Below, one piece after another: positions 33,071 to 48,793 of a stretch of DNA of 64,000 bases (position 1 is the stretch's first letter; every line of letters starts with the position of its first letter). The DNA is taken from the NCBI GenBank assembly GCA_965232515.1, contig CBDDPY010000002.1, positions 5,504,001 to 5,568,000 of the forward strand. The letters are read 5' to 3'. Both the position numbers and the translations under genes were made by a program. This DNA comes from Alphaproteobacteria bacterium (GTDB lineage Bacteria > Pseudomonadota > Alphaproteobacteria > GCA-2731375). The notes below the pieces were generated by a model, which was not told the DNA's origin, ran no database searches, and worked only from the letters and a program-made list of their open reading frames with translations.

Positions 33071-33727
33071 TTATTGCCGGGCGCGCCGCCGGTACCAGGC
33101 GAGGCCGGCGAGGCCGAGGCCGAACAGCGCGAAGCCGGCCGGCTCCGGCACCTTGGCGAACGACAGGTTGTCGGCCTGGAAAACTTCCCTGAAATCTGGG
33201 TTCAGATCTTCGCCTGCGAAGATGATCGTGCTGAACGCGGCGTCGCCCACCACGCCCAGGAAGCCGTCCCCTTCGCCGCCCAATTCAGAAAAGAAGCTGA
33301 CAGTCGCGTCGCCGGCGCCGTCGAAATCGCCAGTCACGGTCAGGCCGTTCAACGACGCCGTGCTGGTCCAGTCGGCGCCGAAGGCGAAAATCGGCATCGG
33401 AAAGTCCCAGGCGATGGTGTCGTAGGTGCCAGCATCGGGACTGCTCCCACGCACCGCTCCTAGATAAGCGCCGGGGAAGCCGACTTCGTTCAGGTCGGTC
33501 GCCGTTGCCGGCGTTCCGGTGCTGATTACGCCGCTGTCGAAGGTGATGCTGTCGGCGCCGGCGATGTCATTGTCGAACGGATCGTCGATAACAGGCCCGC
33601 CCAGCGGCGAGGCCGCCACCGCGGCTTCCCACGAGTTGCGGTCGGTGAAGATCTGAAAGGCGTGGGCGCTCGCCGTCATCGCGAACACGGCAATGCCGAC
33701 AAGACCGGCGACAAGCGATTTGATCAC
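33071..33727 (-). CDS. PEP-CTERM sorting domain protein
   Basis: Signal peptide ending AHA; C-terminal VPEP, TM helix, RRRAR; GTG start after AGGGGG. Confidence 0.92.
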   Translation of the reverse strand: MIKSLVAGLVGIAVFAMTASAHAFQIFTDRNSWEAAVAASPLGGPVIDDPFDNDIAGADSITFDSGVISTGTPATATDLNEVGFPGAYLGAVRGSSPDAGTYDTIAWDFPMPIFAFGADWTSTASLNGLTVTGDFDGAGDATVSFFSELGGEGDGFLGVVGDAAFSTIIFAGEDLNPDFREVFQADNLSFAKVPEPAGFALFGLGLAGLAWYRRRARQ

Positions 33728-33997
33728 GGAAGTCCCCCTGCGTTTGGCGTCCGCCGCGCCGCGCCAACCGCGCGCGCAACCGGACAAGACGCGCATTTAA
33801 CCTTAAGCGATTATCGCGTCAGAAAGTAGAATCAACGATTTCAGTGGTTTGGCCGATTAGCATCGGCGCATTTGTGGCAATCACCGACACTGCCGTGCGC
33901 GAAAGCCGGCGAGTTCTCGGCTAAGCGCTCGATTACAATGAAAAACCGACGCCCGTTCAGTCGTTAAGGATTTCGACGCCGCGTTCGATGCGGCGCC

Positions 33998-36521: not shown

Positions 36522-36602
36522 AGGCCGCGACTGCGGCCCGCCGGCTTATCCGGCGCGCCCGCGCAGGCGCGGACCGTCAGGTCCGCTGCCGTGAGCGCAA
36601 AA
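36522..36602 (+). repeat. 81-bp multi-hairpin dispersed element, copy 1
   Basis: AGGCCGCGACTGCGGCCCGCCGGCTTATCCGGCG...GTGAGCGCAAAA, identical to 48710-48790. Confidence 0.9.
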
Positions 36603-38315
36603 CTAAGTCGCGGGATGGGCGTGCGGGCGTGGGTCGAGCGGGCTGCGCACGATCGCCCCGCCGCGCCGCCGCAGGCGGCTGGCGGCGAGCTCGCCGGCCT
36701 GGTCCAGGATCGGATAGGCCACGGCCGTCAGGTGCGAGTTGATGCGCTTCAGGTCGCGCAGGATGTCGAGATGCAAGGCACTGGTCTCGATGCTCGCGGT
36801 CTGGCCCGAGCGCAGGCGGGCGAGATGGTTCTCGGCGGCCTGCCGTTCCAGGTCGCGGAAGCGTTCCTTCGCGGTCAGCAGGTCGCGCGCGGCCGCCACC
36901 TCGCCCGTCAGGAACACACTCAAGGACAGCTTCAGCGTCGCCATCACCCGGTGGTGCAGGTCGACCAGCTCGCACAGGCCCTCATCCGAGAACTGATAGC
37001 GGTTGCGGATCTTCTTCCGCGCCAGCTCCATCAGGTTCTTGTCGATGATGTCGCCGACATGCTCCAGGTTGGTGGCGAAGGTGATGATGTCGATGCAGCG
37101 GTCGCTGTCCTGGCCGTTCAGCGGCTCGCGCGAGAACTCGGTCAGATAGAGCTTGATCGACTCGTGCAGCGCGTCGACCTGGTCGTCCATGGCCTCGACC
37201 TCGGCCTTCAGCTTCTTGTCGTCGGCTTGGAACACCTCGATGGTCTGCGCCAGCATGTTCTCGACCAGGTCTGCGAGCCGCAGCGTTTCGCGCGTGGCGC
37301 CGGCCAGCGCCAGGTTCGGACTGTCGAGCGCTGATGTGTCCAGGTGCCGCGGCTGGCCCTCGTCGTCGGCCGCCGCCGGCGCCGGCAGCAGGCGCTCGGT
37401 CAGCCGCGCCACCGGTCCGGTCAGACCGAGGAAGACGACGGTCAGCAGCAGGTTGAAGCCGAGATGCGCGTTCGCCACCTGCCGGATCGGCTCGGTCCCG
37501 AATTCCGCGAGGTGCGGCGTCACAAAGGGCAGCAGCGGCAGCAGGACAACCGCGCCCGTCACCCGGAACAGCAGGTTGCCCAGCGGCACGCGCCGGGCCT
37601 GCGGCGGCTCGTTCAGCGTTACCATCAGCGCCGGTAGGGCCGCGCCGGCATTGGCGCCCAGCACCAGGACAAAGGCGAGATCGAGCGGTATGGCGCCGGT
37701 CGCCGCCAGTGAGGCGATCAGCAGCACGATGGCCAGGCTGGAATGGGCGAGCCAGGTGAGCGCGGCGGCCAGCAGGAAGGCCAGCAGCGGTTCGCTCGCC
37801 AGCGCCACGAACAACGCGTGCAGCAGATCGCTGTCGTTGATCGGCATGGCCGCGCCGCGGATCAGATGCAGGGCCAGCAGCATCAGGCCGAGGCCGATGG
37901 CGATGCGGCCGAAATGTCGGACCCGCGGCGTGTCGCTCGCCATGAAGCAGGCGACGCCCAGGAACAGCAGCACCGGGAAAGCGGCGGTCACGTCGAGCGT
38001 GAACACTTGCGCCACCAGGCTGGAGCCGACATCGGCGCCAAGCATGAGCGCGAGCGCCGGCGCCACGGCAATCAGTTCGCGGCCGGCGAACGACGTCGTC
38101 AGCGTCGCCGTCGCGGTCGCGCTCTGCAGCAGCGCGGTGACGCCGAGGCCCGTCAGCCAGGCCGTGAACCGGTTGCGCGTGCTGGCGGCCAGCAATCGGC
38201 GCAGGTCGGCCCCATAGGCGCGCAAAACGCCCGTGCGCACCATGCGCGTGCCCCAGATCAGCAGCGCCACGCCGCCAAGAACGTTGAGCAACAATTCCGT
38301 ACCGGACAACGCCAT
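36603..38315 (-). CDS. Na/Pi cotransporter family protein with PhoU-like domains
   Basis: LQSATA, GADVG, HSSLA, GANAG; NLEHVGDI, ETSALHLDILRDLKRINSH. Confidence 0.93.
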   Translation of the reverse strand: MALSGTELLLNVLGGVALLIWGTRMVRTGVLRAYGADLRRLLAASTRNRFTAWLTGLGVTALLQSATATATLTTSFAGRELIAVAPALALMLGADVGSSLVAQVFTLDVTAAFPVLLFLGVACFMASDTPRVRHFGRIAIGLGLMLLALHLIRGAAMPINDSDLLHALFVALASEPLLAFLLAAALTWLAHSSLAIVLLIASLAATGAIPLDLAFVLVLGANAGAALPALMVTLNEPPQARRVPLGNLLFRVTGAVVLLPLLPFVTPHLAEFGTEPIRQVANAHLGFNLLLTVVFLGLTGPVARLTERLLPAPAAADDEGQPRHLDTSALDSPNLALAGATRETLRLADLVENMLAQTIEVFQADDKKLKAEVEAMDDQVDALHESIKLYLTEFSREPLNGQDSDRCIDIITFATNLEHVGDIIDKNLMELARKKIRNRYQFSDEGLCELVDLHHRVMATLKLSLSVFLTGEVAAARDLLTAKERFRDLERQAAENHLARLRSGQTASIETSALHLDILRDLKRINSHLTAVAYPILDQAGELAASRLRRRGGAIVRSPLDPRPHAHPAT

Positions 38316-38373
38316 TACCCCCTCAAGCCTGCCGGCATGCCGCATTGGCCATACCGTGGTCCCCAGGTGAATG

Positions 38374-38402
38374 TTGTCGTAAAACTGTAATAAAAAATTA
38401 AC
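38374..38402 (+). promoter_or_regulatory. Pho box-like tandem repeat
   Basis: TTGTCGT-AAAA-CTGTAAT-AAAA, 11-bp period resembling CTGTCAT-N4-CTGTCAT, next to a phosphate transporter. Confidence 0.5.
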
Positions 38403-38494
38403 ATTAACAGATTCCTGCCGTGAACGCTCGGACGCGACGCTAGCAAACGGGATTGTGAAGGCTTGTGCGGTGCCTCACATCGTAGGCTTCCGGC

Positions 38495-40094
38495 GATGCG
38501 CGCGAGATGCCCGGGCCCGATCGTTGTGGCGTTTGCTTCGCTGATCACGACGGCGACGCAGGCTGAGACCAGGCTGGAGGTGCTGGCCCGGGTCGGGCCC
38601 TGGCCGGTCGTGTCGCAACTGATCGGCTATGACGGCCGGGTCTGGTTCGCCAACAGCGTCAAGGGTCGCAACCACAACTCCGCCGATATCTACAGCTACG
38701 GTCCGCCGGGCGGCGAGCTTCGCTACGAGCGGCATCTGTTCAGCCAGGACGCCGGCAAGCCCGTGGTCGCCGACGGCCTGCTGTACTGGCCGTTCGAGGA
38801 TTCCCGATTCAGCCTCGGCTGGGGCCATTTCATGGTCACCAACGGCCGCGACTGGCGCTACGGCGCGATTCCCACGGCGCTCTCGTTCCACACCCATGCC
38901 ATGGCCGCCGCCGGCGGCCGTCTGGTCGCGGCGACCTCGGCCTGGCGCGCCGGCCTGCAGGTCTCCGACGATGCCGGGACGACCTGGCGCCAAGTTTACG
39001 ACCACCCGACCGCCAACCGCCGCCTCAGCCGCATTTATGAGATGGCGGCGCTCGGTTCTGTTCTGTTCGCGCCGCTCGTCGACCGCAGCAGCAGTCCACC
39101 GGTTCGACGACTGCTTCGGTTTGCGAGCGACGACGTGGGTGACGTACCCGGATGGCCCGTGCAGCGGATCGTCCTCGGCATGGCGTCGTTCGACGCTTGG
39201 CTCTACGCCGCGATTTGGGACGACGACGGGGCCGCGATCTGGCGCACCGACGGTCGAATGAGCGAACGGATCACAGAACCGCGGGCTGGCTGGCGCGTGC
39301 GGGATCTGGCTGCCGGTCCGGACGGTCTCTGGGTGCTCGAGGCCGCTGGCAATGGCGGCCGTCTGTGGTTCAGCGCCGACGGCCGGACTTGGCGGATCAG
39401 CCGGACGATCGACGGCGGCCAGCCGCAGGACCTGCTGGTCTATGGCGGCGCGGCTTACGTCGGGGGCGCCGGCGATGACGGGCAGGGAATACTGTGGGGC
39501 GACGCCGCACCACTGGCCGTTCCAGCGGCGGCGCTAAAACCGTTGCCGCCGATACCGGCCGGACGGCCGCGCGACTGGCCGGCGCTGGCGGCGGAACTGG
39601 ATGCCTTGTTGGCCCGGCCAGACAGCTACGATCGCCACGGCCGCGTACTGCGCGACGCGCTCTATCGGGCCGTCATCTCATCGCCGCCGCCGGGCTGGCT
39701 GGCGGCGCGCCTCAGCGCCGCGATGCCGGACCGGCGGCTGTCGCTGATCGGCGGCGCGGTCACGGTGCCCGCGCACAAGCTCGGCCAGTGGGCCGTGCTC
39801 TGGGCCATGGCGCTCGCCCGCCAGGGATCTGTGCCGGTCGATCTGATCGCCGCTCCCTGGACCGCGCCCGACAACGGCAGCGAAAAGTATTTCGAGCCCG
39901 CGCCGGCGGCGATCTGGGCCGCCGCCATGGCCGGTCAGGACGATCCCGACACGATCGCGTCCCTGATCGACCGCCTGGACCGTCCGGGCGATCCGCTCTG
40001 GCTGCGCGGCGACGTCGTCGGCGCGCTCACCGCACTCACCGGTCAACGTTTCGGCTACGACATCGCCGCCTGGCGACGGTGGCAAACACGCTGA
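38495..40094 (+). CDS. Hypothetical secreted Asp-box beta-propeller protein with helical C-terminus; start uncertain
   Basis: Signal-like N-terminus; SDDAGTTW, SADGRTW, TNGRDW repeats; C-terminal ALTALTGQRFGYD..AWRRW. Confidence 0.7.
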
Positions 40095-40187
40095 AACATG
40101 CCGTCTTCACGCCGCCAAGGCGTTGATCCTAAGATGTGGCCATAACAACGGCCGATTCGGCCGCAGAACACGAACGGGGGGCAGCTT

Positions 40188-43145
40188 ATGCGCATCCAGC
40201 TCGTGGACGATTTTCGCTTCGTTCATGAGCCGCGCGGCCTGGACGCGACGCCGGGCCGCGCCCGTGTTGTCGCCCGCGATTCGGACGCCGAGGCGCTTGC
40301 GAGCCGCATCCTGCTGTCCGACGGCGGCGCTTTCCTGATCACCGGCTATCGCGGCGTCGGCAAGACGACGTTCGTGAATGAGGTCGTCGGCCGCGTGCGC
40401 GATCGCCTGGAAAGCGGGCGTGTCACCGGCGGCACCGCGCACCTGCTCGACGTCTATCTCAGTCTCGCCCGGCCGATGACCGGCGTTGAGCTCATGCACC
40501 ACATCCTGCGCGGCCTGCACGACCGGCTGCGCCGCGACCGCCTGCTGCGCCGCCTGGCGCCAGGTCTGCGCGAGGACATCGAGCTGGCTTTCATGCGCAC
40601 CAGCACGACGCTCGCCTACAACACGTCCGAAAGCGCCGAGCACAGCTACAGTCTCGGCGGACTTTCCGCCAAGCTGCCATTCCTCGGCCTCGCGCCGTCG
40701 CTCGATCTCGGCGGCAAGCGCAGCCGCGGCCTCAGCCGGCAGATGACGTATCTCGCCTATGACGACAAGGCTGCCGAACAGGATCTGATCCGCATCGGCC
40801 GCGAGCTGACCGACGGCTACGAGACGCAGGCCGCCACCCTTCGCCGGCTCGCGCGGCTGTTCGGCGCCGCGCCGCGGCGCCTGCCGATCAAGGTGCTGTT
40901 CGTCTTCGACGAGCTTGACAAGCTGGAACGCGGCGGCAGCGACGCCGCGAGCGCCGTCGACGAGATGCTGGGCAGTCTGAAGACCCTGCTGACGACATCC
41001 GGCATGTCGTTCATTTTCGTCGCCGGCAAGGATTTTCACGACCGCTGGCTCGCCGACGTCAGTCGCGGCGACAGCATCTACGAGAGTGTCTTCGCGCATG
41101 TCAGCTATTTGCCGGCGCTATGGGCCGATATCGGCGAGTTCTGCGATCCCGTCGTGCACAAAACGGAGCACGAAGGCGGCGGCAGCGCCACGCGCCGCGC
41201 CTATGGCGACTTCAAGAAGTTCCTCGCCTTCAAGGGCCGCGGCATTCCGCGGCGCATCTTCCGCGGCTTCTACGAGCATGTGGTCTGGGAGGACGGCGCT
41301 GCACGCCTCGCCTTTGACGCCGAGGATTTGCGCCGCTTCGAATTTTTCGCCGGTCTGTTCGATGCGCTGCAAGCGGGCGAGCGGGAGCTGTTCGGCGAGC
41401 GCGCCGGCGAACGCCAGAGCGAGCGCACCGACCAGCAGCGGCTCGGCATCTACTACCTTACTGACTGGATCCTGAACCGAGGCGCGCAGTGGTTCAGCAA
41501 GGAGGACGCGCTTGCCGCGTCCAGCCGCCTGAGCCGCCTGGTGGCGCCGGCCGAGGACGTGGCGCCGTCGGTCGTCGAGGGCCTGACCGCGCTGCTTATC
41601 GCGCGGGGCTACCTCGAGCCGGTGAAGGACGAAACCGTCGCCCGCGTCGTGTCGAAGGAGGGCCAGACCCCTGTCTGGTACCGCGTGCCGCGCCGGCGTT
41701 TGATCGAGATGGGCCGCATGTCCGGTTTCTTCGAGCGCGAGTCCGAGGCGCTGCATGACGAGGACGCGCCCGGCGTGCCGCGCGAGCGCTACGAGATCCT
41801 GGGCGAGATCGGTCGCGGCGGCTCCTCCACCGTGTTCAAGGCGCTCGACCGGCGCACCGGACAGCTCGTCGCCATCAAGCAGCTCCACGCCTCGCTGGTC
41901 GATTCCGATCTGGCGCCGCGCTTCCGCGCCGAGATCGAGTTCCTCGCCAACCTGCACCATCCGGGCATCGTGCGGCTGCATGACGCCGGCCTCGACGCCG
42001 AACGGCCCTACCTGGTGATGGACTATCTCGAGGGCGTGTCGCTGCGCCACACCATCGGGCGCGACCAGGGCCTCGAGCCCGACGCCGTGCTCGCTCTCGC
42101 CGATCCGTTGCTCGACGTGCTGGCCTACATTCACGAGCAGGGCGTGCTCTGGCGCGACGCGAAGCCGTCGAACGTGCTCCTGACGCCGCAGGGCCGGCTC
42201 GTCATTATCGACTTCGGCATCGCCCAGGCCATGCGCGACGAGCTGACCCGGACGCAGAGCGTGATTGGCACGCCGCGCTACATGGCGCCCGAGCAGATCC
42301 GCGGGGAGCGTCTCGACACCCGCACCGACATCTACGCCGTCGGCACCATCCTCTACGAATTGCTGACCGGTCACGCGCCCTACGAGGCGACGCAGATCGT
42401 CGAGGCCATGCAGCGCGTGCTGAACGAGACCGCCGCGCCGCCGTCCTCGCTTGCCGACGTGCCGCCGGCTCTGGACGCCGTCGTCATGAAGTGCATGGAA
42501 AAGGACCGCGACGACCGGTACGAGTCGGCCGCGGCCCTGCGTGCCGCGCTGCCGGCGCCGTCGTCGAAGATTGATCTGCGCGACATCGCCGCGCGGGCAT
42601 TGGCTCGCAAGCAAGACGCGGACAGCTACGAAGCCGCCGCGACACGGCTCGTCACCATGGCGGCGACCATGGCGACCGAGGTCGCGCCGCCGCCGCCCGT
42701 CTCGCCGGCACCCGCGCCGCCACCGCCGCCACAACCGACCGCTGTCGCGCCGACCGTACTGGTGCCGGACCAGCCGGCGGAAGCGACGGTCATGATCGCG
42801 GCACCGGCCGCCGGTCCGCGCATCGTCGTGGAATCTGACGCCGGCACGCGCCAGATCGTGCTGGGCGGGCACGACGCCTCCATCGGCCGCAGCCATGACA
42901 ACCGCATCGTCGTCCGCAGCAGCGGCGTGTCGCGTTACCACGCCATCCTCCGCGCACGGGACGCGGGTTATGTCGTCGAGGACGTGAACAGCGCCAACGG
43001 TCTGATGGTCAACGACAGGCTCACGCGCGGCCCGACCACGCTCAACGATGGCGACGTGCTGCGGATCGGCGACGTGAATCTGCGTTATCGCGAGGGCGCC
43101 GACGACCGGGTGGACGAGACCGCGGAAAATGCCGCGGCCTCGTAG
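40188..43145 (+). CDS. P-loop NTPase - Ser/Thr protein kinase - FHA fusion
   Basis: Walker A GYRGVGKT, Walker B VLFVFDE; kinase GRGGSSTV, VAIK, WRDAKPSN, DFG, APE; FHA IGR, VSRYHA, SANG. Confidence 0.9.
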   Translation: MRIQLVDDFRFVHEPRGLDATPGRARVVARDSDAEALASRILLSDGGAFLITGYRGVGKTTFVNEVVGRVRDRLESGRVTGGTAHLLDVYLSLARPMTGVELMHHILRGLHDRLRRDRLLRRLAPGLREDIELAFMRTSTTLAYNTSESAEHSYSLGGLSAKLPFLGLAPSLDLGGKRSRGLSRQMTYLAYDDKAAEQDLIRIGRELTDGYETQAATLRRLARLFGAAPRRLPIKVLFVFDELDKLERGGSDAASAVDEMLGSLKTLLTTSGMSFIFVAGKDFHDRWLADVSRGDSIYESVFAHVSYLPALWADIGEFCDPVVHKTEHEGGGSATRRAYGDFKKFLAFKGRGIPRRIFRGFYEHVVWEDGAARLAFDAEDLRRFEFFAGLFDALQAGERELFGERAGERQSERTDQQRLGIYYLTDWILNRGAQWFSKEDALAASSRLSRLVAPAEDVAPSVVEGLTALLIARGYLEPVKDETVARVVSKEGQTPVWYRVPRRRLIEMGRMSGFFERESEALHDEDAPGVPRERYEILGEIGRGGSSTVFKALDRRTGQLVAIKQLHASLVDSDLAPRFRAEIEFLANLHHPGIVRLHDAGLDAERPYLVMDYLEGVSLRHTIGRDQGLEPDAVLALADPLLDVLAYIHEQGVLWRDAKPSNVLLTPQGRLVIIDFGIAQAMRDELTRTQSVIGTPRYMAPEQIRGERLDTRTDIYAVGTILYELLTGHAPYEATQIVEAMQRVLNETAAPPSSLADVPPALDAVVMKCMEKDRDDRYESAAALRAALPAPSSKIDLRDIAARALARKQDADSYEAAATRLVTMAATMATEVAPPPPVSPAPAPPPPPQPTAVAPTVLVPDQPAEATVMIAAPAAGPRIVVESDAGTRQIVLGGHDASIGRSHDNRIVVRSSGVSRYHAILRARDAGYVVEDVNSANGLMVNDRLTRGPTTLNDGDVLRIGDVNLRYREGADDRVDETAENAAAS

Positions 43146-43219
43146 TTTCGCCGCGAACTCCCATCTAAGAGGGGCAGAGGCGCCGGATGGTGTAAACTCG
43201 GCGCTATGAAGGGATCCGC

Positions 43220-46072
43220 GTGAGCGAACAACGGCAAGCCGATACCGACGTCGACCGCACCGACGCCATGGCCGGCCAGGTGCTGCAGATCGTTCACGAT
43301 CTCGCGGTCGAGCTCAATCCCGGCCGCGAACGCACGCTTCAGGTCGGCCTGAATAGTTCGCTTGACCGCGACCTCGGCCTCGACAGCCTCGGCCGCGCCG
43401 AATTGCTGCTGCGTCTGGAACGCGCCTTCAAGGTCGAGATGCCGCAGAGGCTTTTGGGCGAGGCCGAGACGCCGAACGATCTGCTGGCCGTGCTCGCGTC
43501 GCTGGAGCCGGCCGAGGGCTGGGGCGTCGCGCCCGAGCGCCGCCGGCCGGCTCTCGAAGTGGTCGACGCGGCGCCGACCGAAGCCGAAACCCTGATGGAG
43601 GTGCTGGACTGGCAATACGACCGGCACCCCGACCGGCCGCACATCCTGCTGGCCGAGGACGAGGGCGGCGAGCGCACCATTACCTATCGCGATCTGACCG
43701 AGGCCGCGCGCGCCCTCGCCGCTCGCCTGCAGCATTGGGGGTTGGCGCCGGGCGACCGGGTGGCGCTGATGCTGCCGACCTGCCGGGAGTTCTTCGACGC
43801 CTTCTTCGGCATCCTCTATGCCGGCGGCGTGCCGGTGCCGATCTATCCGCCGATGCGGTTGTCGCAGCTCGAGGAGCATATGCGCCGTCAGGCGGTGATC
43901 CTGGAGAATGCCGGCGCCGTGTTGCTGATCACCGTGGCGGAAGCGCGCCGGGTCGCGGCCGTGCTGCGCGCCCGTGTCGACAGCCTGCGCGCCGTCGAGA
44001 CCGTCGACAGCCTGCCGACCGCGTCGGCGGCCTGGACCCCGGTGCCGCGGCAGCCGGACGATCTGGCGCTGTTGCAATACACCTCCGGCAGCACCGGCGA
44101 TCCAAAGGGTGTGATGCTGACGCACGCCAATCTGCTGTCGAACTCGCGCGCCATGATCGAGGCCATGCACGCGGACTCGTCCGACGTCTTCGTCAGCTGG
44201 ATGCCGCTCTACCACGACATGGGCCTGATCGGCGCCTGGCTCAGCACCATGTACTGTTCGGTGCCGGTCAACATCATGTCGCCGCTGGCGTTCCTGGCGC
44301 GGCCGTCGCGCTGGCTCTGGGCCATGCATCGGCATCGCGGCACGCTGTCCGGCGGCCCGAACTTCGGCTTCGAGCTCTGCCTTCGCAACGTCGACGATTC
44401 CGAGATCGAAGGCCTCGATCTCAGCAGCGTGCGCATGATCGTCAACGGCGCCGAGCCGGTGAACGCCGACACGCTGCAGCGGTTCTCGGAGCGCTTCGCG
44501 CGCTACGGTCTGCGGCCGGACGCCGTGGCGCCGGTCTACGGTCTCGCCGAATCCACCGTCGGCCTCGCTTTTCCGCCGCCCGAACGCCTGCCCATCATCG
44601 AACATATCCGCGCCGGCCCCCTGGCGACGACCGGCGTCGCCGAACTGGCGCTCGCCGGCGAAACGGATACGCACACATTCGTCGCCTGCGGCCGGCCGAT
44701 CCCGCGCCATGAGGCCCGCATCGTCGACGAGACCGGCCGCGAGGTCGGCGAGCGCCGGCAGGGCCGGCTCGAATTCCGCGGCCCGTCGATGACGCAGGGC
44801 TATTTCGGCAAGCCCGAGGAGACCGCGAAGATCTACCACGACGGCTGGATCGACAGCGGCGACTTCGCCTACATGGCCGGCGGCGACATCTTCATCACCG
44901 GCCGCAGCAAGGACATCATCATCCGCGCCGGCCGCAACATCTATCCGCACGAAGCCGAGGCCACGGTCGGCGAAGTGCCGGGCGTGCGCCGCGGCTGCGT
45001 CGCCGTGTTCGGCAGCACTGACGCCGCGGCCGGCACCGAGCGCATCGTCGTGCTCGCCGAAACCCGCGAGACCGATCCGGCGGCGTTGGAGTCGTTGCGT
45101 GGACGCGTCAGCGAAGCGGCCTCCGACGTGCTCGGCGGGCCGCCCGACGAAGTCGTGCTGGCGCCGCCGCAAAGCGTGCCGAAGACATCGAGCGGCAAGC
45201 TGCGCCGGTCGTCCGCCCGCAGGCTCTACGAAGAGGGCCGGATCGGCAGCAAGGCCCGCGCCGTCTGGTGGCAGATCGCCCGCATGACCGCGGCCGGCCT
45301 CGGCGCCGTGGTCCGGCGGCAGGCGCGCCGCGCGCTGTCGCTGGTCTATGCCGGTTATTGGTGGACCGTTATCGGCCTGCTCGGCGCCGTTTGCTGGCTG
45401 CTGGTTGTGGGCGTCAGTCCACCGTCATTGCGCTGGGCTGTCGTGCGCGGCGTCGGCCGGGTGTTCCTGGCGCTGACCGGCGTGCGCTTCACCGTCGAGG
45501 GCGAGGGCAGGGCGTCGACCGGCGACGCCATCGTCGTTGCCAACCACTCAAGCTATATCGACAGTCTGGTGCTGGCGATGGCGGTGCCGGCCGACCTCAG
45601 CTTCGTTGCCAAGAAGGAGCTGGAGAGCCAGCGCGTCGCCGGCCCGTTCCTGCGCCGGCTCGGCACGCTGTTCGTCGAACGCTTCGATCCGGAAGCCGGC
45701 CTCGCCGACGCCGCCGCCGCGGCCGGCGCGGCCCAGGACGGCCATCCGCTGGTGTTCTATCCCGAGGGCACCTTCACCCGGGCGCCTGGTCTGCTGGCGT
45801 TCCGGCTCGGCGCCTTCAAGACCGCGGTCGATGCCGGGCGGCCGGTGCTGCCGGTAACGCTGCGCGGCACCCGCTCGCTGTTGCGCGGCGGCCAGTGGTT
45901 CCCCCGCCGCGGCCCGCTCTCGGCCGTGATCGGAGAGACCATCGCGCCCGACGGCAGCGACTTTGGTGCGGCCATCCGCCTGCGCGACGCCGCCCGGGCG
46001 CAGATCCTGGCGCAATGCGGCGAGCCCGACCTGGCGCACGAACGGCCGGCGATCTTCGACGCCGACGGCTAA
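43220..46072 (+). CDS. Carrier protein - fatty acyl-AMP ligase-like - PlsC acyltransferase fusion
   Basis: LGLDSL; LQYTSGSTG, WMPLYHDMGLIG, YGLAE, PKTSSGK; NHSSYID, YPEGT. Confidence 0.93.
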   Translation: MSEQRQADTDVDRTDAMAGQVLQIVHDLAVELNPGRERTLQVGLNSSLDRDLGLDSLGRAELLLRLERAFKVEMPQRLLGEAETPNDLLAVLASLEPAEGWGVAPERRRPALEVVDAAPTEAETLMEVLDWQYDRHPDRPHILLAEDEGGERTITYRDLTEAARALAARLQHWGLAPGDRVALMLPTCREFFDAFFGILYAGGVPVPIYPPMRLSQLEEHMRRQAVILENAGAVLLITVAEARRVAAVLRARVDSLRAVETVDSLPTASAAWTPVPRQPDDLALLQYTSGSTGDPKGVMLTHANLLSNSRAMIEAMHADSSDVFVSWMPLYHDMGLIGAWLSTMYCSVPVNIMSPLAFLARPSRWLWAMHRHRGTLSGGPNFGFELCLRNVDDSEIEGLDLSSVRMIVNGAEPVNADTLQRFSERFARYGLRPDAVAPVYGLAESTVGLAFPPPERLPIIEHIRAGPLATTGVAELALAGETDTHTFVACGRPIPRHEARIVDETGREVGERRQGRLEFRGPSMTQGYFGKPEETAKIYHDGWIDSGDFAYMAGGDIFITGRSKDIIIRAGRNIYPHEAEATVGEVPGVRRGCVAVFGSTDAAAGTERIVVLAETRETDPAALESLRGRVSEAASDVLGGPPDEVVLAPPQSVPKTSSGKLRRSSARRLYEEGRIGSKARAVWWQIARMTAAGLGAVVRRQARRALSLVYAGYWWTVIGLLGAVCWLLVVGVSPPSLRWAVVRGVGRVFLALTGVRFTVEGEGRASTGDAIVVANHSSYIDSLVLAMAVPADLSFVAKKELESQRVAGPFLRRLGTLFVERFDPEAGLADAAAAAGAAQDGHPLVFYPEGTFTRAPGLLAFRLGAFKTAVDAGRPVLPVTLRGTRSLLRGGQWFPRRGPLSAVIGETIAPDGSDFGAAIRLRDAARAQILAQCGEPDLAHERPAIFDADG

Positions 46073-46075
46073 TTC

Positions 46076-46504
46076 GTGCTGAACGACGCCGAGCGGCGCT
46101 TCCTCGACAGCCAGCCGGTCGGGCGGCTGGCGACGGCCGACGCCGCCGGTCGGCCGCACGTCGTGCCGGTCTGCTTCGCCATTGCCGGCGATAACGTCTA
46201 TGTCGCCATCGACGCCAAGCCCAAGCATGGCGATCCGCTGCGCCTCAAGCGCCTGCGCAACATCGCCGAGAACCCATCGGTATCCCTGGTCGTCGACCGC
46301 TACACCGACGACTGGTCCCGCCTCGGCTGGGTGCTGCTCCACGGCCGAGCCGAGATCCTGACCGGCGGCGCGGAACACGCAAACGCGCAAGACCTCGTCC
46401 GCGCCCGCTACCCGCAAATGCAGGCCATGGACCTCACCGGCCTGCCGGTCATCGCTCTCCGCGTCGCCCGTACCAGCCACTGGGGCGACCTGACGCCGGA
46501 TTGA
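46076..46504 (+). CDS. PPOX class probable F420-dependent oxidoreductase (Rv0121 type)
   Basis: RLATAD..GRPHVVPVCF, DAKPK, LKRLRNI..NP, DRYTDDWSRLGWV. Confidence 0.88.
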   Translation: MLNDAERRFLDSQPVGRLATADAAGRPHVVPVCFAIAGDNVYVAIDAKPKHGDPLRLKRLRNIAENPSVSLVVDRYTDDWSRLGWVLLHGRAEILTGGAEHANAQDLVRARYPQMQAMDLTGLPVIALRVARTSHWGDLTPD

Positions 46505-46525
46505 GCTAAACCGCAAAAATGATGG

Positions 46526-47536
46526 TCATCCTGGCGCAGGCCAGGAGGTGGATTCACATTCGAAGTGCAACAGGTGTTCGATGAAGACCTCGGCTGGGGT
46601 TCTGTAGTCAAGGCATTTCCGCGGCGTGGTGTTGTAGGCGCGCAGGTATTGGTGCAGGCGCCGGCGGTTGAGCTCGTCGAGGTTTGTCTTTCGGGGGATG
46701 AAGCGTCGGAAGCGGCCGATGGCGTTTTCGATGCCGCCCTTCTGCCAGGGGGCATGGGGGTCGCAGAAGTAGGTTTGCATGTCGATGTGCTGGAGTTCGG
46801 TGTGGCGGGCGAATTCGGTGCCGTTGTCGAAGGTGACGGTCTGGCGCAGGTCGGGCGGCAGGTCGGCGAACAGGGCGTGCAGGTGGTCTGCGATGGGCTG
46901 TGCGGCCTTACCCGGTGGCCGGGTGGCGAGGAGGATGCGGGAGAGACGTTCATGGCAGACGAGGATGGCCTGGCCGTAGGTCGCGAACAGCATGAGGTCG
47001 GCTTCCCAGTGTCCCGGGGTTGTGCGGTCGTCGACGTCGGCCGGGCGATCGGCGATGGGCACGCGGCCGGCGATGAAGCTGGCCGGGCTGCCGCCCCTGC
47101 GGCCGCGCCAGCCGCGTTTGCTTTTGCCGCGCGGCAGCAGCAGGCGCCAGCGGAAGTCCTGGGTGCGGGCGAGCTGGGCATAGACGAAGCGGTAGATGCT
47201 TTCATGCGAGATGACGTGTTGGCCGGCGGTGTGGGCGAGCCGGCCGGCGACCTGTTCCGGCGACCAGCCGCGTTTGAGGCCGTCGAGGACGCGGTCGCGC
47301 AAGCTCGGATCGCGTTGCAGGCGGGGCCCGGACCAGCGCCGGGCGCGGGCCTGCTGCTGGGCATAGGCTGGCTTGTAGCCGACCTGTCGGCCGCTGTTGC
47401 GTTTCAGTTCGCGAGAGACTGTTGATGGCGCGCGATCCAGAGCTGCCGCGATTTGCCGGATCGAGCGGCCGGCGGTTTGAAGGCGGGAAATCTCACACCG
47501 CTCTTCCAGTGACAACTGGGCGTAATCGGATCCCAT
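46526..47536 (-). CDS. IS30-family DDE transposase
   Basis: HTH SIRQIA..LDRAPSTVSRELKRN, WSPEQ, GHWEAD, TFDNGTEF, PWQKGGIEN. Confidence 0.96.
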   Translation of the reverse strand: MGSDYAQLSLEERCEISRLQTAGRSIRQIAAALDRAPSTVSRELKRNSGRQVGYKPAYAQQQARARRWSGPRLQRDPSLRDRVLDGLKRGWSPEQVAGRLAHTAGQHVISHESIYRFVYAQLARTQDFRWRLLLPRGKSKRGWRGRRGGSPASFIAGRVPIADRPADVDDRTTPGHWEADLMLFATYGQAILVCHERLSRILLATRPPGKAAQPIADHLHALFADLPPDLRQTVTFDNGTEFARHTELQHIDMQTYFCDPHAPWQKGGIENAIGRFRRFIPRKTNLDELNRRRLHQYLRAYNTTPRKCLDYRTPAEVFIEHLLHFECESTSWPAPG

Positions 47537-47583
47537 CGCAACACCTCCAACACAAGGTGTTGCACTTCGTTTGTGAACTCAGG
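46547..47583 (-). mobile_element. IS30-family insertion sequence inserted in a REP-like palindrome
   Basis: Imperfect IRs TGGATTCACATTCGAAGTGCAACA / TGAGTTCACAAACGAAGTGCAACA; GGA repeated at 46544-46546 and 47584-47586; ends uncertain by 2 bp. Confidence 0.88.
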
Positions 47584-47605
47584 GGATCCATGTTGGAGTC
47601 AGCGA

Positions 47606-47632
47606 TGGATACCGGCCTTCGCCGGTATGACG
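47606..47632. repeat. REP-like palindrome, partner of the IS-disrupted copy
   Basis: TGGATACCGGCCTTCGCCGGTATGACG, reverse GTCAT...ATCCA unit. Confidence 0.75.
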
Positions 47633-47669
47633 ATGGTTTTGGGCCTCGGCCGAATGTCTCCGCCGCCCC

Positions 47670-48608: not shown

Positions 48609-48709
48609 GCCGCTGCCTCCTAAAAGTGAAGGCTATGCTAGCACTGACGCTTGGCCATTGGCTGTTGGAAGTTCAGTTTGGATTGACGGATTGCCGAAGA
48701 CTCGCTTCC

Positions 48710-48790
48710 AGGCCGCGACTGCGGCCCGCCGGCTTATCCGGCGCGCCCGCGCAGGCGCGGACCGTCAGGTCCGCTGCCGTGAGCGCAAAA
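48710..48790 (+). repeat. 81-bp multi-hairpin dispersed element, copy 2
   Basis: Identical to 36522-36602. Confidence 0.9.
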
Positions 48791-48793
48791 GAA

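Follow-up and report, generated by a model that had tools for sequence, protein, structure and literature searches.

Hanks-type Ser/Thr kinases joined to a nucleotide switch are known in bacteria, and very few of them have been studied. PknK of Mycobacterium tuberculosis is named as a STAND kinase in the accessible part of PMC4381067, where the nucleotide-binding oligomerisation domain (NOD) of STAND proteins is laid out as a nucleotide-binding domain (NBD), a helical domain and a winged-helix (WH) domain. Bacterial kinase-FHA pairs are represented by PknH-EmbR and PknF-Rv1747 (accessible part of PMC2877116). Here we describe a gene at positions 40188-43145 (+) of a 64,000-nucleotide stretch of alphaproteobacterial DNA (GenBank assembly GCA_965232515.1, contig CBDDPY010000002.1, positions 5,504,001 to 5,568,000), below called the window. 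The gene encodes a P-loop NTPase module, a Hanks kinase and an FHA domain in one chain, and the closest known kind of protein is a STAND-type Hanks kinase such as PknK. It had been singled out in an earlier note, made from the sequence of the window alone, and we find that it belongs to a single-gene family that is rare, scattered across bacteria and without description in the literature searched.

Full-text searches returned no description of an NTPase-kinase-FHA chain, with the reservation that the supplementary architecture tables of Kaur et al. might list one; in the accessible parts of the Kaur et al. papers themselves, S/T/Y kinase and FHA feature solely among the optional effector domains found in multi-gene systems. 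The earlier note had called the domain order unfamiliar, and no characterised protein with the order NTPase-kinase-FHA was found in the searched literature. The architecture check that it had proposed returned this order in 157 of 243 family proteins, a recurrent arrangement that is yet uncharacterised in that literature.

Coding evidence and domain anatomy

The open reading frame (ORF) of 985 amino acids (aa) shows a codon-position GC of 0.72/0.47/0.88, which matches the surrounding real genes and is as expected for regional DNA of 68% GC, so that we regard it as a real gene. A G-rich ribosome-binding stretch lies directly 5′ of its ATG, and the gene is present in one copy in the genome (7.39 Mb, four contigs). 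A promoter and terminator scan of 38300-46600 was uninformative, with 0 promoter-like sites and 5 terminator-like ones where 3.5 were expected. The protein consists of three parts, the P-loop NTPase module (residues 1-525), the Hanks kinase (535-784) and the FHA domain (898-961), the latter two delimited by Pfam, which is the anatomy that the earlier note had read from the sequence. The motifs it had named were all located (Walker A at residues 53-60, Walker B at 236-242 and GIPRR at 352-356), the long insert it had described between Walker A and Walker B measures 180 residues from K59 to D241, and no transmembrane (TM) segment is apparent, as it had stated, since the highest Kyte-Doolittle mean over 19 residues across the protein is 1.29. 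These motifs lie far outside chance expectation, given that they vary little or not at all across the 121 aligned family members, to which all conservation counts below (x/121) refer. The features of the gene are as follows:

40188-43145 (+): whole gene, 985 aa, with NTPase module, Hanks kinase, Pro-rich linker and FHA domain (ORF list, translation, third-position GC of 0.88)
40188-41117 (+): AAA+-like P-loop NTPase base, residues 1-310, as predicted from the AlphaFold2 model, structural matches and invariant columns
40344-40367 (+): Walker A GYRGVGKT, residues 53-60 (GYRG[VI]GK[TS] in 121/121; K59 in 121/121)
40623-40748 (+): low-confidence but conserved loop in the Walker A-B insert, residues 146-187, with a K-R-[ST]-R-[ST] motif
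40893-40913 (+): Walker B VLFVFDE, residues 236-242, followed by D244-K245 (D241, E242, D244 and K245 each 121/121)
41118-41312 (+): predicted helical lid, residues 311-375, with G350-R351-G352-I-P-R355-R356 (helices 316-362 in the model)
41313-41762 (+): predicted helical arm and WH domain, residues 376-525 (sub-model, winged-helix matches)
41790-42539 (+): Hanks-type Ser/Thr kinase, residues 535-784 (Pfam Pkinase 185.5 bits, cut-off 31.7, E 1.6e-54)
42150-42173 (+): catalytic loop W655-R-D657-A-K659-P-S-N662 (D657, K659 and N662 each 119/121)
42573-42857 (+): linker, residues 796-890, with Thr819 (codon 42642-42644), then Pro-rich spacer (column counts)
42879-43070 (+): FHA domain, residues 898-961 (Pfam FHA 61.3 bits, cut-off 20.7, E 1.2e-16)

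The continuity of the gene is supported by independent sequence data. A contig of run X1, which may be the source of this DNA, spans 39800-43400 without difference, and short contigs of a second sample (X3) are identical with 0 differences. RNA-seq contigs of a different study and organism label (X4) are 94-96% identical; one of them (41352-41992) crosses the junction of NTPase and kinase, and overlapping X4 contigs reach from the kinase into the FHA domain. The X4 contigs hint at transcription without proving it; of the raw reads of a poly-A RNA library (X21), 0 aligned, which says nothing for or against expression. Furthermore, a 985-aa protein with 99% identity (P0003) is found in another assembly.

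In the NTPase module, the conserved columns include an N-terminal strand within the base (L5, F9-R10-F11 and H13-E14-P15), K281 (104/121), R286 (115/121), W287 (118/121) and the GIPRR motif at 41241-41255, in which R356 is kept in 117/121 and R355, like the preceding R351, in 121/121. The loop of the insert is conserved at K177 (106/121), S/T179 (101/121), R180 (84/121), S/T181 (83/121) and E/D185 (111/121), and is followed by Y191 (121/121). With the Pfam models, the NTPase part reached the cut-off of AAA_22 (34.9 bits, cut-off 27); that of AAA_16, a STAND-type model, was not reached (30.0 versus 32.6 bits), and many homologues carry PF13191. The earlier note had suggested a relation to KAP-family NTPases. 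The cut-off of KAP_NTPase (PF07693) was not reached by the protein itself (11.6 versus 20 bits), whereas PF07693 is precomputed in 32 of 120 listed close homologues and its cut-off is passed by 8 of 18 distant relatives, that is 4/9 NTPase relatives from genomes (L040, L052, L054, L075) and 4/9 family proteins (P0193, P0199, P0207, P0241), so that the suggestion is right in part. The nearest Atlas clusters are stand-alone ATPases of 390-485 aa labelled AAA_16, AAA_22 or KAP_NTPase, with KAP_NTPase in 13-78% of members. Judged by these profile scores, the module is placed at the border of AAA_16 and KAP_NTPase.

An AlphaFold2 model of residues 1-525, built with 88 homologues, has a predicted local distance difference test score (pLDDT) of 83.7 and a predicted TM-score (pTM) of 0.83; it is confident except for residues 146-187, with pLDDT below 50 at 146-164 and 166-187. 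The model was compared with ~48,000 PDB representatives and the matches were ranked by Z. The best match is archaeal ORC2 (1w5s_A) with Z 14.4, a root-mean-square deviation of 4.7 and 259 aligned residues, followed by Cdc6/Orc1 (2qby_A) with Z 14.1 and 332 residues, covering residues 4-518 and thus base, lid and winged helix. Other matches are TnsC (Z 13.4 and 12.8), MuB (12.6), MalT (12.3) and RdrA (12.3), and among STAND proteins ZAR1 (Z 11.9), Avs3 (11.4) and Apaf-1 (10.2). Foldseek likewise returned ORC/Cdc6, RdrA and plant NLRs, all with E 1.6e-7 to about 1e-5 (RdrA 5.6e-7). At the sequence level, phmmer against PDB chain sequences gave no ORC/Cdc6 protein at E<=1 and RdrA only at E 0.76. 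Residues 376-530 folded alone with pLDDT 81.9, and this sub-model matches winged-helix structures with Z 6.5-7.9: the NLR 9h2l_A (Z 7.9), the C-terminus of the archaeal AAA+ protein 2fna_B (Z 7.7), Fur/PerR/PadR regulators, the WH of ORC2 (Z 7.2-7.6) and the WH domain of Apaf-1 (Z 6.6). In the predicted structure the module is thus built as NBD-lid-(arm)-WH, with an insert of helices and loops in its AAA+ base, and follows the design by which ORC/Cdc6 and STAND proteins bind nucleotide and oligomerise. All three parts of the STAND NOD scheme are present in the model; nevertheless ORC/Cdc6 scores higher than the STAND proteins. ORC/Cdc6, TnsC, MuB, MalT, RdrA, ZAR1 and Avs3-type proteins act by nucleotide-dependent assembly.

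The catalytic set of the kinase is complete and comprises the Gly-rich loop, K564 and E582 (both 121/121), D657, K659, N662, the D675-F-G motif (D675 119/121) and the APE motif (E702 119/121); Thr687 of the activation loop is kept in 106/121. The histidine of the HRD motif is replaced throughout: the position holds R in 83/121, W in 36/121, a gap in 2/121 and never H, and it is W655 in the 985-aa protein. Family proteins that bear an additional kinase in front of the NTPase (order K-N-K, see below) keep HRD or HGD in this extra N-terminal kinase, whereas the kinase after the NTPase has R-x-D where the catalytic-loop motif could be located. Because its HRD histidine is replaced by R or W, unlike in the extra N-terminal kinases, the NTPase-linked kinase is regarded as a distinct subfamily or clade. 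The missing histidine is a departure within the Hanks family and no ground for exclusion from it.

Within the otherwise variable linker Thr819 is kept in 114/121, with E or D at position -4 in 80/121. The columns for phosphothreonine (pThr) binding in the FHA domain are conserved as well: G900 (119/121), R901 (118/121), S915 (115/121), R916 (116/121), H918 (93/121) and N942 (107/121). In the RNA-seq assembly X4, the Pro-rich linker of a ~95%-identical relative is longer by an in-frame insertion of 15 nt behind 42743, so the length of this linker is free to vary.

Family architecture and distribution

With residues 1-525 as the query, 198 of 8000 scored candidates matched at E<=1e-3; among the 120 homologues listed, Pkinase was present in 120/120 and FHA in 116/120. 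Nine of these 120 add a C-terminal SpoIIE/PP2C phosphatase, mostly with GAF, and several others add zinc ribbons; these accessory additions are regarded as signalling parts. An exhaustive HMMER search over 1.84 billion cluster representatives gave 1398 matches at E<=1e-3, 496 at E<=1e-10 and 245 at E<=1e-30. In order to obtain a census of domain orders, the three domains (N for NTPase, K for kinase, F for FHA) were mapped by phmmer on 243 family proteins. The order N-K-F was found in 157/243, N-K in 43/243, K-N-K in 13/243, K-N in 3/243 and F-N-K-F in 2/243, and five other orders were seen once each. N alone was found in 20/243, with lengths of 257-567 aa, and many of these may be fragments. 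At least one kinase is thus present in 223/243 proteins: linkage of NTPase and kinase is obligate throughout the family, and FHA is the commonest addition. Across phyla the 525 residues of the NTPase part share 39-51% identity, and the Walker A octapeptide does not vary.

The family is very sparsely distributed. The NTPase part was found in 0/40 relatives, among them one from the same genus and 23 from the same family; in 400 genomes of its own phylum the 525-aa NTPase query gave a single weak, partial match (E 2.4e-7), and in the phylum of another carrier 0/300 genomes had a match at E<=1e-20. The five carrier genomes tested contain one copy each (5/5). A pattern scan of 185,579 species genomes yielded 77 loci, of which 34 (L005-L037 and L039) were taken as family loci. 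These belong to Acidobacteriota, Chloroflexota, Cyanobacteriota, Planctomycetota, Myxococcota, Bacteroidota, KSB1 and Alpha- and Gammaproteobacteria. In three of them (L031, L037 and L039), on contigs of metagenome-assembled genomes (MAGs), the family gene is split into 3-4 ORFs, which may reflect pseudogenisation or frameshift errors of long reads. Among 72,556 plasmids and 50,697 phages, none matched the NTPase part.

A quick tree was built from 28 NTPase+kinase sequences. In it the window protein falls into a clade with 97% support in the SH-like approximate likelihood ratio test (SH-aLRT), together with two MAGs of Alphaproteobacteria and one each of Pseudomonadales, Ketobacteraceae and Caldilineaceae, the Ketobacteraceae sequence being sister to that of Caldilineaceae with 99% support. 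The phylum labels on this tree require 11 changes against a minimum of 7, a number that errors in MAG binning may inflate. At the DNA level, no match to 38463-43145 is listed for 12 relatives, whereas the genes on either side are matched there; the family gene in this genome looks like an old horizontal acquisition and not like a member of an operon.

A proposed assembly switch, its rivals and the gene context

Starting from the observed domains, catalytic residues, NTPase-kinase linkage and patchy distribution, and taking the dynamic steps by analogy from ORC/Cdc6, STAND and FHA-kinase proteins, we propose that the protein would be an ATP-gated, self-assembling cytoplasmic kinase switch in which the FHA domain reads the conserved threonine of the linker; we give this reading about even chances of being right. 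Some input would trigger the binding of ATP, and the NTPase module would assemble into a dimer, a ring or a filament. The assembly would gather the kinase domains and lead to mutual (trans) phosphorylation, for which Thr687 of the activation loop, Thr819 of the linker and possibly the K-R-[ST]-R-[ST] loop of the NTPase insert are the likely sites. The C-terminal FHA domain would then dock phosphothreonine, most likely pThr819 of its own or a neighbouring chain, and so latch the active assembly in a Chk2/Rad53-like manner; alternatively, it may recruit phosphorylated targets. Hydrolysis of ATP would reset the switch, and both Glu242 of Walker B and a candidate arginine finger, Arg286, are conserved. 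The most obvious candidate for the input surface is the conserved low-confidence loop of the insert. That the protein oligomerises and reads its own phosphothreonine can be reasonably inferred, and no more than that, from the conserved Arg after strand 4, from Thr819 and from the intact pThr-binding residues of the FHA domain. A homodimer prediction for residues 1-435 with ATP and Mg (score 0.00, mark 0.42) is evidence neither way.

The host genome holds two Hanks-kinase loci in 7.39 Mb, four FHA ORFs and one SpoIIE-type phosphatase, and no match to PP2C or PP2C_2 was found in it. Since there are two Hanks-kinase loci only, the FHA ligand is most likely provided by the protein's own kinase. 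The one remaining Hanks kinase of the host (C2:1001642-1002319, -) is part of a 1483-aa ORF and has a 306-aa FHA ORF (C2:1003858-1003986, +) ~1.5 kb away; the two constitute a second, separate kinase-FHA pair in a genome otherwise poor in kinases.

Several observations weigh against the proposed switch. The very sparse distribution would be uncommon for a signalling kinase of the ordinary sort, and it suits conflict or defence genes no less well. Most STAND proteins are gated by repeat sensor domains, but here Pfam detects no TPR, WD40, LRR or ankyrin repeats, and the kinase follows directly after the winged helix. The winged-helix identity of the sub-model is probable, not certain, as its Z values are middling and all below 8, and Foldseek on this sub-model returned nothing at E<=1e-3. 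Furthermore, catalysis might be changed or weakened by the R or W that replaces the HRD histidine, and the conservation of Thr819 could have a structural cause.

A more far-reaching form of the proposal, which we consider clearly unlikely, is that of a single-chain 'signalosome'. Here the KAP/STAND-like NTPase itself would sense via the conserved, unstructured K-R-[ST]-R-[ST] loop, which would either bind a ligand derived from an invader or from damage or become phosphorylated; a ring or filament would activate the non-HRD kinase, the FHA domain would latch pThr819, and the whole would serve as a horizontally mobile immune or checkpoint switch.

Among the rival explanations, a single-gene anti-phage or conflict system survives best, and we regard it as possible, though on the unlikely side. 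The NTPase would sense a part of the invader and assemble, and the kinase would phosphorylate host or phage proteins broadly and thereby abort infection, comparable to staphylococcal Stk2, PD-T4-6-type kinases and Avs- or RdrA-type ATPases. The extremely patchy distribution, the mixing of phyla in the tree, the stand-alone gene without a conserved partner, the structural relatives (RdrA, Avs3, Avs5 and NLRs) and an IS30-type element 3.4 kb downstream all argue for it. KAP-type NTPases are cited as players in phage defence in the accessible part of PMC8195603, and in that of PMC13001434, a paper containing the term 'KAP family', the YobI-family P-loop NTPase Tmn is reported to protect against phage. 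However, the context of the gene lends no support to the defence role that had been envisaged in the earlier note. The neighbours of the 34 family loci and of the window gene were collected with a longest-ORF caller, which is crude for high-GC DNA, and clustered by blastp: no neighbour cluster occurs in more than 3 of the 34 loci and the window, and the clusters shared between loci are mostly from close kin. The 20 flanking proteins that were annotated at 13 loci are metabolic or unknown save for three that hint at defence or mobile DNA, a Methylase_S protein (specificity subunit of type I restriction-modification), a Bro-N protein and an SNF2 helicase, and no defence gene is among the neighbours in the window. 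All 25 listed PADLOC matches (PD-T4-6, mad6, MkoA) lie inside residues 522-864 with no methylase or other partner gene adjoining, and because of this confinement they are attributed to generic kinase similarity. The empty plasmid and phage searches, the lack of a variable sensor domain and the strong conservation across phyla, which is unlike that of fast-evolving sensors, point away from defence too, as do the FHA, GAF and PP2C additions, which are typical of regulatory circuits.

It is also conceivable, and in our estimate very unlikely, that the protein is a soluble Ser/Thr kinase of the ordinary kind, with an N-terminal NTPase that serves just as a nucleotide-binding scaffold or localisation domain and neither switches nor assembles. 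Several of the listed family proteins are labelled by JGI as 'serine/threonine protein kinase/Cdc6-like AAA superfamily ATPase' with no function known, which would agree with such a reading. However, K59, D241, E242, R351 and R355 are invariant and R286 is nearly so, and from the invariance of the NTPase catalytic residues we argue that an active hydrolytic cycle is under selection. Likewise, the NTPase and its dedicated non-HRD kinase co-occur across the family.

A slim chance is left for a nucleic-acid-associated, checkpoint-like kinase, in which the ORC/Cdc6-like module with its winged helix would load on DNA or RNA and the FHA-kinase part would signal, making the protein a bacterial analogue of Rad53/Chk2. 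It would account for the top structural matches, which are DNA-bound AAA+ proteins (ORC2, Cdc6/Orc1, TnsC and MuB), for the winged-helix domain after the lid, and for the joining of kinase and FHA, which is the arrangement of Chk2/Rad53; an SNF2 helicase adjoins the family gene at one locus. Yet STAND proteins that do not act on DNA rank almost as high (MalT, ZAR1 and Avs3), the net charge is -2 in the winged-helix segment and -4 in the arm, no replication or repair genes recur nearby, and at the sequence level there is no match to any solved ORC/Cdc6 protein.

That the gene is an assembly chimera, as the earlier note had allowed for, or a fused mis-call of separate genes has virtually no chance and is refuted by the data, since the order N-K-F is shared by 157 of 243 proteins from many assemblies, a nearly identical protein occurs in another assembly, the contigs of the second sample agree with the window without difference, and the independent ~95% identical X4 contigs cross the domain junctions.

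The neighbours of the gene in the window are a Na/Pi cotransporter, a secreted protein without Pfam match, a PP-binding/AMP-binding/acyltransferase protein and an IS30-type transposase. The secreted protein upstream (38463-40094, +; 543 aa with an apparent signal peptide) was rejected as a partner, as it has neither a Pfam match nor a homologue in the other 34 family loci; it may have come with the kinase gene or be specific to the lineage. Similar genes to the downstream PP-binding/AMP-binding/acyltransferase gene are found in 2 other loci, several kb off, and its proximity was judged coincidental. The IS30-type element spans 46524-47633 and encodes a transposase with HTH_38 and rve domains (46526-47536, -); it is probably active, since at least 5 other copies with 99-100% identity are present on the same chromosome. 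A repeat of ~85 bp at 36523-36606 and 48705-48791 has many copies in the genome and recurs, with 88-99% identity, in the same-genus genome G001; its appearance is that of an intergenic element of the repetitive extragenic palindromic (REP) or miniature inverted-repeat transposable element (MITE) kind. The 241-aa protein encoded at 33071-33796 (-) has a PEP-CTERM sorting motif at its C-terminal end (E 1.3e-6). Outside the window, three closely related Acidobacteriota/Blastocatellia loci (L005, L007 and L014) carry a second kinase gene of ~456 aa and an ORF of ~192 aa directly upstream of the family gene, an arrangement not seen in the other loci.

Comparison with known systems

PknK, built as a kinase followed by a MalT-like NOD and repeats, shares with the window protein the combination of a Hanks kinase and an NBD-helical-winged-helix switch in one chain, and in both nucleotide-dependent assembly would be expected to control the kinase. 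Unlike PknK, however, the window protein has the NTPase first and the kinase second, is without a repeat sensor or DNA-binding output and ends in an FHA domain; its NTPase belongs to a clade at the KAP/AAA_16 border with a 180-residue Walker A-B insert, and its kinase is without the HRD histidine. The archaeal ORC/Cdc6 proteins (ORC2 of A. pernix, 1w5s, and Cdc6/Orc1 of S. solfataricus, 2qby) resemble the module in the predicted fold over base, lid and winged helix. They differ in that no sequence similarity to them is detectable, and the window protein lacks a replication context, has an acidic winged helix and an attached kinase, and carries a much longer insert.

The KAP NTPases (PF07693) resemble the module in the long Walker A-B insertion, and more distant members of the wider NTPase family pass the Pfam KAP cut-off. 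Inserts between Walker A and B often carry TM helices in the KAP family. In contrast, the window protein stays below the cut-off and no TM helices are apparent in its insert; no KAP-kinase fusion was found in the literature searched. RdrA of RADAR and the Avs/NLR STAND ATPases share the fold and are also often large single proteins with a patchy distribution, whereas the present family is without partner deaminase or nuclease effector, sensor repeats and defence-island context. As in Chk2/Rad53 and in PknH-EmbR and PknF-Rv1747, an FHA domain and a Ser/Thr kinase would cooperate, and docking to pThr is expected to drive activation or choice of substrate. In Chk2/Rad53 the FHA domain precedes the kinase and there is no NTPase, and in the mycobacterial pairs the FHA domain sits on the substrate, unlike here, where it is on the kinase's own chain.

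What is new in this family is the NTPase in first position, which forms a clade of its own and is always followed by a kinase subfamily with a replaced HRD histidine. Its sparse spread over many phyla raises the question whether the family is a conflict system. As a one-gene, well conserved and soluble family it is a tractable model for the control of a Hanks kinase by AAA+/STAND-type assembly and for the role of the FHA domain, and because the host has two Hanks kinases only, the phospho-network in it is likely to be small and separable. If the signalosome proposal were true, the protein would join assembly of the Apaf-1/NLR type with phospho-latching of the Chk2/Rad53 type in one polypeptide.

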